Shown here one piece after another: positions 30,296 through 64,000 of a stretch of DNA of 64,000 nt. Each line of letters opens with the position of its first letter. Within the stretch, counting starts at the first letter, position 1. A program made the translations under genes and the position numbers. This stretch comes from Moniliella sp. 'wahieum' (lineage: Eukaryota): positions 496,001 through 560,000 of the forward strand of contig RSEE01000018.1 in NCBI GenBank assembly GCA_003971905.1, in the 5' to 3' direction. The notes under the pieces are model-generated. The model had not been told where the DNA came from. It searched no databases and worked only from the letters and a program-made list of their open reading frames with translations.

Positions 30296-33200
30296 GCTCG
30301 GGCCACTGGCCCAGCGCCGAGCCAATGGCGGCAGCGGCGAGCGCGAGGCGGCAGAGTCTGCGGCCCATCAGAGGAGAAGAGGGTGGCGGAGGTGGTGGCG
30401 GCGTGGCGAGGGCGGCGTGGTGAGGAGGGGGCAGGCTGCTGCCCAGCCACGCCAGACCAACCGCACACACGCCTGCTGTGCCGCGCGGCAGTGCAGATCG
30501 CCCCCGCGCACGGCGCCAGTGCCTGCTGCGAGTCGATCGCCGCCTCGGCTGTCACTGCCCTGCTGCGGCGCCCGCTGTTCGACGAACACGTGAACGCTTG
30601 CACGCTTGAACGTTTGAACGCAGCCGCTGAATTCGATGCGCCGATCGCCCCTCCTGCCGCCGCCCACCGGGCCGAGGTACTATGTACTCCACCCTCGCTT
30701 TTCCCAGGCCCCCAGAGTGGCTGGACCAAGTGCAAGAAGCTCTCCAAGCTTCAAGCTTCAAGCGTGGCTAGCCCAAGTCACGACAGCCCATAGCAAGTCA
30801 TCGAGCCCTCCCCGGCACCCTCCACCCGCAGCTCTCCGCCCTCTCTCTTGCCTGATATAGCATCTCCGAAATACCAAAACCCTGCAGGCACACACACAAC
30901 TGAATTAATAGAGCAAGGATAGACAAAGAGGAACAAGGTGGACGCCATGGAATACGGATGGTGGCTGTTCGTACCAGCAGCAACAGCCAGTACAGGAGCC
31001 AAGACGGAGGCCAAAGGCAAAGATTATGGCGGTCGAGCTGTCTCTGGTCCGTCGGGCCGGCCAACAAGATATTATGCTACTCTGCCAACATTGAGGGCAA
31101 GAGGGAACTATATTTGAAGAGTTCTGAAAAAAACGGGAAACGTGAGTCAGGAGAGAGGTCACTGCGCTATGCCATACACGGCAGGGACAGAGCTTGGGAA
31201 CCGAACCTGACCTGCCGTAGGTACGGCGAAGTGTGTGGCGCTACAAGGGACCGCAAGAATGGGCGGGCTACGGTGGTCCGAAAGGAGTTCACCAGGCATA
31301 GCGGAAAAGTATGTTGTCTGGCTTCAATGGGTGGTGTGAGGGGAAGGGGATCACTGCCGCGCTAAGGGAAGTGACAGGAGTAGATATCAGAGACGGTGAG
31401 GGTGGAGGCTCTTTGCGGGGAGGAGTGGACAAGGGAAAGATGAGATCGCCGCCTTGGCTGAAGAGAAAGAAAATCGTTTTTGCTCAACCAAGGGGGGTCG
31501 GTTTTCTGGCATTAGATGTGGCAGAAAGCTCGTAAGAGAGACAGAGAGGTGTGGTCATGCAGGTCATGAGGGGATCATTTCAGCTTAATTGTATTATAGG
31601 GCTCAAGGATATCCAGACCACCCGCATCCCCATGCGTAATATCCCATACGTGTGGCCTGCTGGTTGGCAGATTGAAGGGCCTTCAGGTTGCGGCAGGTTG
31701 ACTTACCCCCCCCCCCTCCCAATTGGGGGGCAACAGGGGTCTGAGGGAGGTGTGGATGTGCAAAGGCCACATCACCGCCTTGGATCCAAATGGAGCTGAT
31801 TCTCAGACTTCACAAGTTAGAAAACAAGGAGACGGGAGCATCAGGGGAAACGAGTATAGCCTGCATACGGTCAGATTCGACGTGCCCATAGATCCTGTTT
31901 GGTCACCTCATCGTCCTGGTGAAGGGCCAAAAGATTGACTTAAGTGCGACATCAATTTCGTGATGACATCTCTGTGCTGTAGGATGGGTCGGATATAGCA
32001 GTAGACCGGGGGGGGTGGCATAAGCTGCAAGGTACAGTGGTGGGCGACGGCCAGTCTTGTCTCCTCAAGCAGGCGCAAGTCGAGTTCAGCGCGTCGAGTT
32101 CAGCGCAACCTCGTCGTCCAATTGGCCGCCCAGAGGGTGGTGGTGGGTTGGCGTCGTCAGGAGGCGGGATTGGGCGTCTGTGTACGTTCGTGAGGGACGA
32201 GAGGAGACGGATCGCCCGGAAGAGCGCGGTAAAAAAACATGGTGCAGGGTACTAGTGGGATACCAAATGGGGTGGGGGTGTGGAGGGGAAGAGATGAAGA
32301 TGTGGAAGTGGTATATGGGGCCAAGTGTGGAATGAATGTTGGTAAGGCCAGGCTGGGGTAATCTTATGCGGCAGCCGCTGCCAGAGCGGGATGGAGCGTT
32401 CGGCTGCGGGAGTCGGCTGGCTTCGCTGCGACACTCTTGCCATTCAATATTCAATGCTCACGTGCTCAACACTGCCCCTGCGCCTGCTCGTGACCACCCC
32501 CCCTACAACTGAGCAATGCAACTTTGCCGTTGCTCAACCGTTTTTACATTTCAGCTCTTCCGTAGGTATCGCTAGTTCGCGACTGCTGGAGTGACTGTAT
32601 CTGACTACTGCTAATAGTCAACGCGACTCAGGTAAAAATAATGAGAAGTACACATGTGTGCTCTCTGACAAACTGCTTCTTTGTTGGGTAACACGCTTGT
32701 TCACCACCACGAAACGCCAGTAGTCGCTACCAACGGAAGGATAACTCACTATTTTGTGAGTATATCATGATCGAGATGGAGAGATCGATGACCACACGTC
32801 TTTGTTTTTTGTCTTCACCGTCGCCCGCCCCCCCGAAAGTGGCGAAAATGAGTCTTTCAGTTGCCGTCGATCAAATGCCGTCACAATCGATATATGTTCT
32901 CTTCTCTCTTTCGTATTTGACAGCTTTGATGAGAAACCCAACACATACAACGCAAAGTCTTTGTATACATGACCACACCACAACAGTTGACAACGTTTTG
33001 ACAGCTATACGCCTCTCCGACTATACTCAATGTTGAGCAAAAAATGAGAACGAAGAAAAGAAGATAACTGTGGCGTTTTGGAACACATGTCACAGAAAAG
33101 CGCCAGAAAAGTTCGCGGGACCGCAGGAGAACGGGCGGAGATGAAAAGGAAGGGAAAAGGGAGCTTGTTTTCTGCTCATGTCAATAAGTGCGTTGTCACT

Positions 33201-46433: not shown

Positions 46434-47093
46434 ATGCCTCTTGTTGGTTCCAAGGCCCCTCTCTTCACCAAGGCTGCTGTCATTGACGGCCAGATCTCGG
46501 AGGTCTCTCTCGAGAAGAACCTCAAGGCCGGCAAGTGGACCGTGCTCTCGGTATGTCTACTTCTATCCCGCCTCGGCCCTTGTGGGTATGCTTGCTGACC
46601 CGCCATGGTTCCTCTTTCCCAGTTCTACCCCCTGGCCTACACCTTCGTGTGCCCCACCGAGATTGTGAGCTACGGTGCGGAGGGCAAGGCGTTCAAGGAC
46701 CTGAACGCTGAGCTCCTGTACGCCTCGACCGACTCGGAGTTCACCCAGCTCGCCTGGGACCAGGCCAAGACCTCGGACGGTGGCCTGGGTGGCGTGTCGA
46801 AGAACGTGGCTCTGGTGGCTGACACGAACCACAGCCTGTCGCGGGACTACGACGTGCTTCTCCCTGACCAGGGCGTTGCGCTGCGTGGCACCTTTATCAT
46901 TGACCCGCAAGGCATCATCCAGCATGCCACCATCAACAACGCCCCTGTTGGCCGCAACGTGCAGGAGACCCTCCGTCTGCTCGAGGCGTTCCAGTTCACT
47001 GCCGAGCACGGTGAGGTCTGCCCTGCCGGTTGGCAGAAGGGCGCGGACACCATCGACACCAAGAACGCCACGGCCTACTTCTCCAAGCACTAA
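46434..47093 (+). CDS. TSA1: Typical 2-Cys peroxiredoxin (Prx1/Tsa1)
   Basis: Exon 46434-46550, intron 46551-46622 (GTATGT..GCTGAC..CAG), exon 46623-47093. Motifs FYPLAYTFVCPTE (peroxidatic Cys), GGLG, LRGTFIIDP, VGRN, GEVCPAGW (resolving Cys) and YF. The frame is intact. Confidence 0.96.
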
Positions 47094-55601: not shown

Positions 55602-56990
55602 ATGTCCCATCTCCCTGCTACCGCCGCCTCTGGCGTCCAGGAGGGCCGCGCCAGCGTGGTCCTCGGTGCGCAATGGGGTGACGAGGGCAAAGGTGAGTTC
55701 CTTCCCCTCCTTTTTCCTCGTCGCCTCTGCTGACTGTCGCTTGGTTCTGCAGGCAAGCTTTGTGACATCCTTGCGGGTGCCATGGACGTGTGCGCTCGCT
55801 GTGCTGGCGGCAACAATGCCGGTCACACCATTGTGGCTCATGTGGGCCCCGACAAGGTCAAGACCAAGTTTGACTTTCACCTGCTGCCCTCGGGCCTGGT
55901 CAACCCTCGGTGCGCCGGCTTTATTGGTTCGGGGGTCGTAGTGCATGTGCCTTCGTTTTTCGCTGAGCTCGACACGCTGGAAAAGAAGGGCTTGGAGGTG
56001 AGTGGCCGTCTGTTTGTTTCGGACCGCGCCCATCTGGTGTTTGACTTTCATCAAGTCGTCGATGGCATGAAGGAAGTCGAGCTGGGAGGCAGCAGCATTG
56101 GCACCACCAAGAAGGGCATTGGGCCAGCGTACGGTTCCAAGGCTTCCCTCTCGGGCCTGCGTGTGCATCACCTGTACGACCAAGAGTTGTTTGCAACCAA
56201 GTTCCGTAACCTGGTTGAAGGCCGGTTAAACGCTACGGTCACTTTGAGTACGACACGGAGGGAGAGATTGCGCGCTACCGTGCCTTTGCTGAGCGTCTGC
56301 GCCCGTTTGTTGTCGACGGCGTCACTTTCATCCACTGCGTTGGCACAGAACCGCCGTGTGTTGGTCGAGGGTGCCAACGCGTTGATGCTTGACATTGACT
56401 ACGGCACGTACCCCTACGTTACTTCGTCTTCCACAGCGATCGGTGGCGTGTGCACTGGCTTGGGCATCCCCCCCAAACTGGTGGGCAAGACGATTGGTGT
56501 GATGAAGGCCTACACTACGCGCGTCGGTTCCGGTCCCTTCCCCACCGAGCAGCTCAACGAGGTTGGAGTTCACTTGCAAGAGGTGGGTGCCGAGTGGGGC
56601 GTGACGACCGGCCGTCGTCGCCGGTGCGGATGGCTGGATTTGGTGGTGATGAAGTACTCGCACATGATCAATGGCTACGACAGCCTCAACCTCACCAAGC
56701 TCGACATTCTCGACGACTTGGAGGAAATCAAGGTGGGCGTGGCGTATTACCACGATGGCGTCGAACTCGCCTCGTTCCCTGCCGACTTGGAGTTGCTGGC
56801 GCAGGTGCAAGTCAAGTACGAGACGCTGCCCGGGTGGAAATCGAACATTTCCAAGATCACCCAGTACGACGAGCTGCCGACCAACTGCAAGAAGTACATT
56901 GAGTTCTGCGAGAAGTTCCTCGGCGTGCCCATCGAGTACATTGGCGTTGGCCCTGGCCGCGAGAGCATGATCCACCGGCAGCAGGCGTAA
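55602..56990 (+). CDS. ADE12: Adenylosuccinate synthetase
   Basis: [14 protein letters not shown] across intron 55693-55752, [76 protein letters not shown] and IGVGPGRE. Confidence 0.97.
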
Positions 56991-58778: not shown

Positions 58779-58959
58779 TCGCCTGGCTCCCCCCCCCAGC
58801 CGTCTTTTCCTCTTTCCCGTTGGCTGCTGGCTCGCTTGCCCTCTCTTCTTGCTTCTTCCACCCTCCTCCCTTCCTCCGCCGGTGCGCATCTGCTCTCGCT
58901 CTGCTCTGCTGCTCAGCCCCGCACCGCCCCATCCTTCCCTCCCGCCGCCTGCGAGTACC

Positions 58960-61900
58960 ATGGTCGCCGTCCGCGTCGACGCCCTGCCCGTGCAGCCCCA
59001 GCAACCCGACCTCAACGACCCCCTTGTCGCCCCCCCGCGGGGCGACCACCCCGAGGTGACCACCTCGGCCAACCTGGATGCCAATGGCTTCCACCATGTC
59101 GTCCGCTCGCAAGCTTCCTACGGTGGCGATGCGCTCCCTGCCGCCCAAGGCCTTTACGACCCTGAGAACGAAAAGGACAGCTGCGGGGTGGGCTTTATCT
59201 GCCACATCAAGGGCAAGCCCAGCCACAAGATTGTGTCCGACGCCAAGTTTGTCCTGTGCAACATGACCCACCGCGGCGCCACTGGTGCCGACGCGCGCGA
59301 TGGTGACGGCGCTGGGTGCATGACTGGTATCCCCGACTCGTTTTTCCGCCGCGAGCTCGAGATGGACTTTGGCATCACCCTTCCCGCCGAAGGCCAATAC
59401 GCGGTGGGCAACGTCTTTTTCACCCCCAAGGATGACCGCTGCGTGCGGACCACCAAAAGATCTTTGAGTCGGTCGCTGACTCGGTAGGGCTGCGTGTCCT
59501 GTGCTGGCGGAACGTCAGTGTCGACAACTCCATCCTTGGTCCCGCCGCGCTCAGCAAGGAGCCCAAGATCCTCCAGCCCTTTGTTGTGGCCAAGGAGCAC
59601 TATGGCGCCGGATCGGCGCCTGCGCAGACAGAGGCTCCGTTTGACGAGAAGAACTTTAATCGCCAATTGTACGTGCTGCGCAAGTCGGCCACTCACAAGA
59701 TTGGTTTGGCCAACTGGTTCTACATCTGCTCTCTCTCCCCGAGCAACATTGTCTATAAGGGTCAGCTTGCACCCCGGCAGGTGTACGACTACTATTATGA
59801 TCTGCTCAACGCCCGTTACGAGTCGCACTTTGCCTTGGTCCATTCCCGTTTCTCTACCAACACTTTCCCTTCTTGGGACCGTGCCCAGCCGATGCGGTGG
59901 GCAGCCCACAATGGTACGCATGCCTCCCCTCTTCGCCTTGGTCTACTTCCTTGTTACTGACTCCCTGATGCATAGGCGAAATCAACACGATCCGCGGTAA
60001 CAAAAACTGGATGCGTGCCCGCGAGGGCATGTTGCGTTCGGAAGTGTTTGGCAACGACCTTGACCGCCTCTACCCGATTATCGAACCTGGTGGATCCGAC
60101 TCGGCTGGGTTTGACAATGTACTGGAGCTTCTGGTCGTCAATGGTGTCTTGACGCTGCCCCAAGCGATCATGCTTCTTATTCCTGAGGCTTGGCAAGGCA
60201 AACAAGACCATATGGAGCCCGAAAAGGTTGCCTTTTACCGCTGGGCGGCTTGCATGACGGAGCCTTGGGACGGGCCCGCCCTGTTTGCCTTCTCGGATGG
60301 TCGCTTCTGTGGTGCCAACTTGGACCGCAATGGCTTGCGGCCGTGCCGGTATGTCATCACTGACGACGACATTATGATTTGTGCGTCGGAGGTGGGCACC
60401 ATCCACATTGATCCGGCGACGGTGTTGGCCAAAGGCCGGCTGCAACCCGGGCGTATGCTCTTGGTGGATACCAAGGAGGGCCGCCTGGTCGACGACAAGG
60501 AGCTCAAGATGACTACTGCCCAGTCGGCCGACTTTGCTGCCTGGCTCGAAGCGCAGCTACTGCATCTCCCTGACATTTGTCGCCGCACCCGGGCCAACGC
60601 GCCGATCACGGCCGAGCTCGACAGCACCACCCTTAGTACCGATCCGCGGATGAAGGCGTTTGGGTACACCAACGAGCAGATTAATCTGTTAATGCTCCCC
60701 TGGGCACGTCTGGTAAAGAGGCGCTGGCTCGATGGGTAACGATGCGCCCCTGGCGTGCATTGCCGATGCGCCTCGGCAGGTCTACGAGTACTTCCGCCAG
60801 CTGTTTGCTCAGGTTACCAACCCGCCCATTGACCCATCGCGAAGCGGTCGTCATGTCGCTGGAAACGTATGTCGGTCCCGAGGGCAATCTGCTGGAGATG
60901 AACCCCAAGCAGGCTCACCGCCTCTTGCTCCCATCGCCCATGCTAAAGATTGAGCAGATGAATGCCATCAAGCGCATCCACGAGGCTCGACGACTGGAAG
61001 ACAAAGGTAATTGACATTACATTCCCCAAGGCGATGGCATTGCGGGCTACGAACGCACGATCGACCGCATTTGCGCAGAGGCTAGCGCGGCGATTTCGGA
61101 AGGCTACACCATTGTCGTTTGTCTGACCGTGCGGTGAGCGAGGACCGCGTCGCCTTGAGCTCACTGGTTGCCGTCGGTGGTGTGCATCATCACCTGATCC
61201 GCAACAAGGCTCGTACCAAGGTGGCTTTGATGATTGAGACGGCCGAGGCTCGGGAGGTGCATCACTTCTGTGCCTTGACGGGCTATGGTGCCGACGCCAT
61301 TTGCCCCTGGCTGGCGATTGAAGTGATGGCCAAGGTGCACCGCGAGGGCTTGATCAAAGAGGACATTACGCTCGAGACGGCTGTCGAGAACTGGCTGCAC
61401 GGCGTGGATGGCGGGATTCTCAAAGTGATGTCCAAGATGGGCATTTCGACGCTTGCATCCTACAAGGGTGCCCAAATCTTTGAGGCACTGGGCGTGGACA
61501 ACTCGGTGATCGATCGCTGCTTTGCCGGTACGGCCAGCCGCATCAAGGGTGTCACGTTTGAGCTGTTGGCCATGGATGCATTTGAATTCCACAACCGCGG
61601 TTGGCCTTCTCAGGAAACGGTCCTGCCCCCCGTTTTGGCCGAGAGTGGCGAGTACCACTGGCGAGATGGTGGTGAGGCTCACGTCAACGATCCCGTGTCG
61701 ATTGCCAATCTGCAGGATGCGGCGCGGGAAAAGAATCAGTTTGCCTGGGACCAGTACAGCAAGCAGGCCACCCAGTCCGTCAAGGCCACCGCCTGCGTGG
61801 CTTGCTCGACTTTGACTTTACCAAGGCGCGCCCCATCCCCGTGGACCAGGTCGAGCCGTGGACGAGATTGTGCAGCGATTCTGCACTGGCGCCATGTCGT

Positions 61901-64000
61901 ACGGTTCCATCTCGATGGAGCCCACTCGGCTTTGGCGATTGCCATGAACCGCTGGGTGGCAAGTCCAACACGGGTGAAGGCGGCGAAGACGCCGAGCGTT
62001 CCATTCCACTTCCCAATGGGGACTCGCTCCGTTCGAAGATCAAGCAGGTTGCTTCGGCCGGTTTGGTGTCACGTCCAACTACCTTGCCGACAGCGACGAG
62101 CTGCAGATCAAGATGGCGCAGGGGGCCAAGCCTGGTGAGGGCGGTGAGTTGCCAGGCCACAAGGTGTCGCCATCGATTGCGCGTACGCGTCACTCGACCG
62201 CGGGTGTCGGTCTCATTTCCCCCCCTCCTCATCATGACATTTACTCGATTGAGGACTTGAAGCAGCTGATCTACGACCTCAAGTGCGCCAACCCTCGCGC
62301 GCGTGAGCGTCAAGCTTGTGTCCGAAGTGGGTGTTGGCATTGTGGCGGCGGGTGTGGCCAAGGCCAAGGCGGACCATGTGCTGGTCTCGGGTCACGACGG
62401 TGGTACGGGTGCGTCGCGCTGGACTGGCATCAAGTACGCCGGACTTCCCTGGGAGTTGGGTCTGGCCGAGACGCACCAGACATTGGTGCTCAACGACCTG
62501 CGTGGCCGCGTGACGGTGCAGACTGACGGTCAACTTCGCACTGGTCGCGACTTGGCCATCGCTACGCTCCTAGGTGCCGAAGAGTATGGCTTTGCCACCA
62601 CGCCCCTCATTGTGATGGGCTGCATCATGATGCGCAAGTGCTTGGGTGTGGACACGCTGGTGCGCACGCTGGGCGGTGCGCGACGAAACGCATTGGCGAT
62701 ATTGCCCTTGGCGACACGCTGTTGGACGACAGCAACAACCCTGTGCTTGTCATGTCGGTGGGCGATGTGGAAACGGGGGAGATGTACCAGGTTGCATACA
62801 CTCTTGATGGCGAGGAAAGCGCTTTGAGTGCACGCCGGACCACATTCTTTCTTTGGCAGCCGTGGGCGTGGAGCCCACGATGGAGAACAAGACGGTCGAG
62901 TTTTACAAGCGCTGCGTGTCGGGCAAAAAGCTGGACCAGGCGGCCGAGCACGCGCCTCGTGTATGATGCACGACCTTGTAACTCTGGCGATGTCCAAGAC
63001 TTGGACCGCGAAGATGAGGTGGACGAGGAGATTGGGTATGTTATTTGGATCTTGTCCCGTGCAGCGAAGGCGTACTGACTCGCATATACCTTTAGCTCTG
63101 AGATGTTACCAAGGAGTTGCTCAGCGGGCACCGTCACCGTGCCCACGCGACGGGCGCATCGCCATTCGACCCTCGCAGTTGCGTCCATGGCAAGGAAACC
63201 GTCCACGTTTCCTTTGACCTTGGCGTCGCCATGCCCGAGCTCGAGAGCGACCACGGTCGGACGCTTCGTCGACGGCCCCTGGCACCCCAGCCATCGAGCC
63301 TGCCGCCGACACGGTGGCCCTTGGCCCGGTGGATGAACTGGTGTTGAGTGAAACTGCCAAGGCACCTGCGCCCGTTCGTGCCACCGAGGAGCCCTTCCTC
63401 CGTGTTGGGGCTCAACTGCAAGGCCGCCTTGCCCTTCTCAAGGAGAAGATCCAGGAGGCAAGTGAGTGCTCCTGCGGTGGCCTGCACAAGGTCTCGCTTG
63501 AGCTGGCGTCCGAAGAGCAGGCACAACTGGTTAACAGCCTCCTCTTCTCTGAGCACCACCACCTTGTTGAGCCCAGCCTCGTTTTGGATGGCGACCGGTT
63601 CGAGGCGACAGCTGAGGACCTTCTCAACCACTCCCACCCTAAGCTCCGTCTTTTCCGCCCTGCCAACCAGGCCGAGTTGGGGCTGGCGCAGGACGATGCG
63701 TACTTTGTTGGTGCCTGGTTGGGCGATGGAGATGCCCACCGGGCCACGCTGGCCGCTTCGGATGCGGAAATGCTGGTGTGGTTGCACAAGTATGTGGAAC
63801 AGCTGAACGCGACGCGTCCCCAGGGCGCGACCGAGCTCAAGGTAGTCAGCCGGAAGGTGACTGCGGTTGGGGACCTGGTCGGATCCAATGCGTTTGCTCG
63901 GGCCGACATGTTTAAGCACACGGTTCTTGCCCAAGACTGGAACCCGCTGGAGGCGAAGCTTACCGACCTAGGCCTTCTCGGCACCAAGGAGCGCCGCATC
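58960..64000 (+). CDS. GLT1: NADH-dependent glutamate synthase (GOGAT); intein-containing, incomplete at the window edge
   Basis: EKDS-CGVGF (Ntn amidotransferase Cys), [29 protein letters not shown] (intron 59914-59975), [98 protein letters not shown] and GCIMMRK. The sequence then switches to intein. Confidence 0.97.
62639..64000 (+). mobile_element. GLT1 intein with LAGLIDADG homing endonuclease (N-terminal part; C-terminus outside the window)
   Basis: The expected CHLNTCPVG after GCIMMRK is replaced by [13 protein letters not shown] (block A, Cys1 at 62639), [20 protein letters not shown], block [12 protein letters not shown] (62823-62855), LAGLIDADG-type [11 protein letters not shown] (63698-63730) and [20 protein letters not shown] at the edge. 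Confidence 0.93.
63036..63095 (+). other. Spliceosomal intron inside the intein coding sequence
   Basis: 5' GTATGT at 63036, branch TACTGAC at 63073-63079 and 3' ATACCTTTAG ending at 63095. It is 60 nt, AT-richer than its flanks and contains an in-frame TGA (63076-63078). Its size and signals match host introns (ADE12 60 nt; GLT1 62 nt with the same TACTGAC). Confidence 0.75.

Follow-up and report, generated by a model that had tools for sequence, protein, structure and literature searches.

The window, by which we mean the whole 64,000-nt stretch of DNA that was analysed, carries at its downstream end the N-extein coding region of GLT1, the gene for NADH glutamate synthase (58960–62638, plus strand), which ends in ...GCIMMRK and contains 13 one-base frameshift sites; its start at MVAVRVDAL is tentative. 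The Pfam domains GATase_2, Glu_syn_central and Glu_synthase were found in this order (E values of 1e-28 to 1e-82) in abutting ORFs of different frames, which leave no room for introns between them. One intron of this region has been verified by homology (59914–59975, plus strand; 62 nt, GTACGC...TACTGAC...ATAG): position 233 of the GATase_2 profile is reached at nt 59915, and the match resumes at 59975 in another frame. Two other introns of the window have been verified in the same manner, one of 60 nt in ADE12 (55693–55752, plus strand) and one of 72 nt in the gene for a 2-Cys peroxiredoxin (46551–46622, plus strand; GTATGT...GCTGAC...CCCAG), whose removal joins ...KWTVL to FYPLAYTFVCPTEI. 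Pieces of the GLT1 N-extein are up to 92–96% identical to homologues, and a Boletus protein shares 73.5% identity with the N-extein, a Tuber protein 71.3%. The closest N-exteins are those of P0101 (83% identical) and P0068 (81.5%), both of which are of the intron type described below and have no intein.

Directly after the N-extein lies an intein, whose predicted exon 1 (62639–63035, plus strand) comprises Cys1 (62639–62641), block A (CLGVDTLV), block B (TPDH, 62832–62843) and an acidic linker, and whose predicted exon 2 (63096–64000, plus strand) reads (G)SE-DVTKELL..., includes CSCGG (63464–63481) and the first LAGLIDADG motif (63701–63733), and continues past the window end. Cys1 aligns, together with the residues that follow it, with CL..DT.VRT of 10 homologous GLT1 inteins, and TPDH aligns with CTPDH in homologous inteins. 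The second LAGLIDADG motif and the C-terminus of the intein fall past the window, and in the related protein P0001 they read LLAGLLDTDGSY and ...LVAHN followed by CHLNTCPVGIATQDP, respectively. The window ORF matched GLT1-type inteins with E values down to 1.3e-25, and a profile built from seven GLT1-type inteins matched the endonuclease and the C-terminal VVHN block of PI-SceI with an E value of 3.3e-12; no intein family in Pfam was matched by the intein fragments of the window. When the 261-aa ORF at 63218–64000 was used for an HMMER search, 44 proteins were obtained at E <= 1e-3, the best being 40% identical and the longest no more than 1269 aa, and several of them are complete inteins flanked by MRKC...HNCHLNT. 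In word-index searches, which were limited to proteins of at most 2000 aa while GLT1-plus-intein models are expected to have about 2600–2700 aa, 10 of the 120 N-extein relatives listed had a homologous intein at the exact MMRK/C point (the slash marks the insertion point). Both the Pfam domains and these inteins support GLT1 as the host gene and the canonical site as the insertion point, in agreement with an earlier reading of the DNA made from the sequence only (hereafter, the sequence-only reading), which had named glutamate synthase as the host of an intein.

Judging from these comparisons, the element is a full-length LAGLIDADG intein at the classical MMRK/CHLNTCP site in the nuclear GLT1 of a fungus that is rich in GC and has introns; it would presumably still be active, with its C-terminal half lying beyond the window. 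It shares with the known GLT1 inteins the host gene, the insertion point (MMRK/C...HN/CHLNTCP) and the full-length LAGLIDADG type, whereas in its visible part the identity to those found does not exceed 40% and the linker is shorter. GLT1 inteins at this site have been described from a few ascomycetes (PMC1635734, PMC5784728, PMC5056185), and the GLT inteins listed by Green et al. (2018) are confined to Pezizomycotina and Saccharomycotina. The PI-SceI (VMA1) intein of Saccharomyces cerevisiae (PDB 1dfa, 1vde, 1lws) has the same splicing domain and LAGLIDADG endonuclease and ends in VVHN, but it differs in host gene, lacks an intron and is distant in sequence.

The reading frame at this locus is broken at many places. 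A frameshift-aware alignment of P0101 to 58950–62641, from which the verified intron had been removed, revealed 13 one-base events between 59263 and 62641, namely 10 deletions and 3 insertions, two of which lie within about 20 nt of each other (60704/60724). The visible intein contains at least five one-base slips, at 62678/79, 62820, about 62957, 63102 and 63257, and three of these can be placed to the base, where an extra A, G or T in a short run would restore the frame. ADE12 has two one-base indels: a 57-aa ORF in another frame, lying inside an otherwise intact 418-aa ORF, corresponds to residues 190–226 of a solved adenylosuccinate synthetase (E = 7.8e-15). Over the coding sequence between 55734 and 64000, one-base indels, mostly deletions, thus occur about every 270 nt (about 3.7 per kb), and the preponderance of deletions points to assembly error.

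Such a locus could be read as a decaying GLT1/intein pseudogene, in which the intron-like string described below would be a chance product of unconstrained sequence, since its frame changes at least 18 times from 59263 to 63257 and it is untranslatable as it stands. The lesions are, however, all one-base indels, with no in-frame stop in the 11 GLT1 and intein segments; the extein pieces keep the high identity to homologues mentioned above, the indel density is equal in extein and intein, and the housekeeping gene ADE12 has the same defect. We therefore regard decay as highly improbable. Because the indels are general and the 11 segments have no in-frame stop, the locus appears to be mis-sequenced rather than decayed, and the one-base shifts are, on the sequence evidence, sequencing or assembly errors, neither decay of the intein nor a part of its mechanism. 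This bears on the further base slip that the sequence-only reading needed in order to reach the DVTKELL frame: one base is indeed needed at 63102, and it is best taken not as a feature of the element but as an error of the sequence, because about 20 one-base indels are spread across GLT1, the intein and ADE12. Any gene model built on this assembly requires frameshift correction, and GLT1 can be modelled correctly here only by fixing about 20 assembly indels and by removing the 60 nt to which we now turn.

The candidate spliceosomal intron occupies 63036–63095 on the plus strand (60 nt, phase 2) and splits a Gly codon as GG/C. It begins with GTATGT (63036–63041) and ends with CCTTTAG, and the donor fits the GTRNGY consensus of this organism, for which the verified introns have GTGAGT, GTACGC and GTATGT. 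The branch-site motif TACTGAC (63073–63079, plus strand), with the branch A at 63078, lies 17 nt before the acceptor G, so that CTRAY is present within 10–40 nt upstream of the acceptor, and a YAG acceptor stands behind a pyrimidine-rich tract (ATATACCTTTAG at 63084–63095). The three homology-verified introns of the window, with lengths of 60, 62 and 72 nt, have the same signal layout. The observations on which the sequence-only reading had based its proposal of this intron were reproduced: the donor, TACTGAC and TAG acceptor are all present at 63036–63095; TACTGAC is identical to the motif in the upstream GLT1 intron at 59914–59975; the length equals that of the ADE12 intron; and the unspliced frame runs into TGA at 63076–63078, which is in frame with exon 1 and closes the ORF 62527–63078. 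This TGA falls in the frame common to both flanking exons and sits inside the branch-site motif. Joining 63035 to 63096 gives ...EEIG-SE, as had been predicted, with the two exons in the same frame; the DVTKELL frame begins at 63102 and overlaps the E codon by one base, and the extra base discussed above is required at this point.

To evaluate how often such a string arises by chance, we used a motif fixed beforehand from two homology-verified introns (GTRNGY, 25–45 nt, CTGAC, 8–20 nt, YAG). It was matched seven times on the plus strand and never on the minus strand of the whole window, against 1.65 matches expected per strand, and the expectation within the 1362 nt of visible intein (62639–64000) is 0.035. 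Three of the six plus-strand matches other than the candidate are the homology-verified introns of ADE12, GLT1 and the peroxiredoxin gene; the remaining ones are at 32562, 49846 and 53740. The more exact motif given in the sequence-only reading is present at a single place in the window; 300 simulations under a second-order Markov model gave an expectation of 0.003 per strand, a post hoc figure since this motif was defined from the candidate itself.

The main rival to an intron is that the 60 nt are a coding linker of the intein, and that the TGA and the frame problems result from sequencing indels. At the error rate of this assembly, with indels about every 270 nt and at times two within 20–60 nt, two close indels could create a false in-frame TGA, and one indel does lie 7 nt past the putative acceptor; two compensating errors inside 60 nt would nevertheless be required, and the donor, branch site and acceptor would have to stand at the right spacing by chance, for which the above expectation of 0.035 holds. 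The base composition points in the other direction as well, because the GC content is 0.47 in the 60 nt, whereas the 300 nt on either side have 0.58 and 0.66. By codon position, the GC of the 60 nt is 0.40/0.50/0.55, while five longer coding pieces have GC1 of 0.63–0.72 and GC3 of 0.67–0.80, and the 66-nt piece directly upstream of the candidate has 0.77/0.32/0.55. The codon usage is compatible with coding: in the continuing frame the segment scores -0.056, which is within the coding range though low (15th percentile of true coding windows), in a test of low power in which two ADE12 training segments were mis-framed. Frame 2 is open across the whole segment, as a coding linker would allow; no Pfam match was obtained for this frame-2 ORF or for the minus-strand ORFs over the region, and no Rfam family was matched in 62000–64000. 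The peptide that would be read through the 60 nt is hydrophobic, in the middle of an acidic linker. A longer intron starting from GTATGA (62961) was considered and rejected, because it would remove a stretch of high coding score (0.51) that aligns with the ...DL.D... motif of the homologues.

Comparison with homologous inteins is another check for an interruption of this kind, and for this purpose 16 homologous inteins and P0001 were aligned by MAFFT. In the spliced form, 24 residues separate DL (...QDLDRE...) from the H of HRHR, and the corresponding spacing from DL to HYHR in the typical homologue P0048 is also 24, other homologues being off by a few residues. If the 60 nt are left in place, about 14 of the 20 additional residues align to columns in which 15 of the 16 homologous inteins have gaps, the exceptions being P0053 with residues in two of these columns and P0012 with residues in five; such a distribution speaks against a coding linker. 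In P0002, P0003 and P0005 the whole intein is a single ORF without such an insert, in contrast to the intein of the window with its putative intron. The gap and spacing arguments are soft ones, since the homologues are no more than 40% identical and the acidic linker in which the candidate lies, between block B and the endonuclease domain, is little conserved. All in all, the 60 nt show every sequence feature of introns in this organism, and taking them out agrees with the homologues.

P0001 is the only close relative that we have found; two tblastn HSPs, which overlap by one base at 63257, cover 52 aa at 77% identity and 250 aa at 71%. P0001 is an uninterrupted ORF of 1393 aa that covers the remainder of the intein as well as the C-extein, and because of this single open frame its contig is considered to be of good quality. 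Its first residues are MLPLAFFYSSEDV, and they start nine codons before the position that corresponds to the acceptor. If the 60 nt were coding, the ORF of P0001 should extend upstream, yet it starts here; this start near the acceptor favours an intron because a continuing frame would be called together with the N-extein. One observation on P0001 is in favour of a coding linker, namely that the last eight codons over the acceptor, LAYTFSSE in the window, resemble LAFFYSSE of P0001 at five of eight positions, a likeness that could be coding conservation. FFYS of P0001 is at the same time what a TTY TTY TAY AG/Y tract, that is, a pyrimidine tract plus acceptor, would encode, and we infer that P0001 probably has the same intron. 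A search for the N-terminal ORF on the side of P0001, using residues 40–183 of the frame-1 ORF against proteins of 322–2000 aa, gave 0 scored among 450 candidates. Metagenomes scanned with the intein ORF of the window, and again with 225 aa of P0049, gave no confirmed match, and genome contigs and viral contigs searched with the ORF of the window gave no match.

On the basis of the splice signals, their spacing, the composition and the homologues, we consider that 63036–63095 is probably a genuine U2-type GT-AG phase-2 intron inside the reading frame of the GLT1 intein, with a probability of about 0.72, and that the 60 nt are presumably spliced out. A coding linker damaged by sequencing indels is clearly less probable but is the most serious of the other readings. 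The intron may also be real and its retention may serve as a regulatory switch on the output of glutamate synthase, an extension put forward in the sequence-only reading, as retention gives a premature TGA 13 codons into the intron, and the length is a multiple of three, so that this stop alone prevents read-through. Nothing in the sequence, however, sets the candidate apart from the constitutive introns of the window, and short introns commonly contain an in-frame stop; we hold such a switch to be improbable, somewhat more so than a coding linker.

Under the preferred reading, the spliceosome would remove the 60 nt together with the other GLT1 introns, and the mRNA would be translated into a precursor composed of the N-extein, an intein of about 575 aa and the C-extein. 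The intein would then excise itself by the class 1 pathway via Cys1, TxxH of block B, the C-terminal His-Asn and Cys+1, of which Cys1 and TPDH are seen in the window, and His-Asn and Cys+1 in P0001 only. At this position, in the weakly conserved acidic stretch that links block B to the endonuclease domain, an inserted intron would do no harm, and an unspliced transcript would stop at the TGA inside the branch-site motif. If the intron is real, splicing of the RNA and afterwards of the protein would thus probably be required for Glt1, and the host enzyme would rely on two unrelated splicing mechanisms acting in succession within one mobile element. Every homing event that proceeds by DNA repair would copy the intron as well. 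This would constrain the routes of spread, because DNA-level homing keeps the intron and spread via RNA would lose it.

Such an intron could also be used as a relative age marker, indicating a residence of the intein long enough for intron gain. The sequence-only reading had proposed a long residence in a nuclear genome, and this proposal has gained indirect support, in that the ORF of P0001 also breaks at this place. The fuller statement that the intron is nested in the intein frame, is common to at least two species with inteins about 71% identical, and was gained while the intein had been vertically inherited for long enough, is tentative, and we place it a little below even odds. The gain of an intron in a long-resident nuclear ORF would be mechanistically unsurprising.

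Inteins are usually sought and annotated as uninterrupted in-frame insertions, and an intron inside one, if real, would show that surveys based on ORFs can overlook nuclear inteins of intron-rich fungi or cut them short. Inteins in GLT1, inteins of the LAGLIDADG type and short introns in fungi are each known already, and an intron inside an intein frame is apparently unreported: phrase searches of the open literature turned up no account of a spliceosomal intron that interrupts the frame of an intein. The remark of the sequence-only reading that introns within inteins are rare, with no case known for fungal GLT1, agrees with this null result, which is weak evidence of absence. The nearest cases known to us are introns beside intein sites in PRP8 of Aspergillus and Eupenicillium, a mutually exclusive intein and intron in PRP8 of Bathycoccus, and paralogues in Anaeramoeba (PMC1508164, PMC3749507, PMC10710043). 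These cases and the present GLT1 have in common an interplay of spliceosomal introns with inteins within a single nuclear gene, whereas in those cases the intron is in the extein or replaces the intein, and the present candidate is within the frame of the intein itself. Self-splicing introns of bacteria that stand beside inteins, and introns within introns, also represent multi-layer splicing for one product, but none of them is a spliceosomal intron nested in an intein.

Several observations made during these searches concern the neighbourhood of GLT1 inteins more generally. In 61 of the 120 fungal GLT1 N-extein ORFs listed, the ORF breaks one or two codons after MMRKC; 55 of these 61 are closed within 110 aa, and in 6 the sequence is taken up again at NTCPVG. 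The other listed ORFs include 40 that are contiguous across the site and 10 with an intein. This pattern, a break after MMRKC(H) in 61 of 120, is the same as that of the introns beside PRP8 intein sites, and points to a widespread intron adjoining the GLT1 intein insertion site. With the GLT1-type intein profile (endonuclease and C-terminal splicing block), 167 bacterial relatives were found in Sulfurimonas, Hymenobacter, Methylobacter and others, the best 80 of them having 25–32% identity; these bacterial loci have no bearing on the intron.

The related intein ORFs P0046, P0048 and P0049 share one internal stopping point, which follows ...S/SIE..DC(K/E) and directly precedes the conserved CGG, and two of them end in short nonsense tails. 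This shared stop may represent a second, independent intron inside GLT1 inteins, and the three ORFs give a hint that introns inside GLT1 inteins are recurrent and overlooked. Relatives were also found next to sequences of other kinds: P0016 is an intein in another host, in which the sequence past ...VVHNC resembles by eye a kinesin motor (SSRSH, DLAGSEN), and P0011 has a related intein flanked by apparent Sel1-type repeats, again as judged by eye. In P0017, ...VVENCH is followed by nonsense sequence, which suggests that an intein and an adjacent extein intron can coexist.
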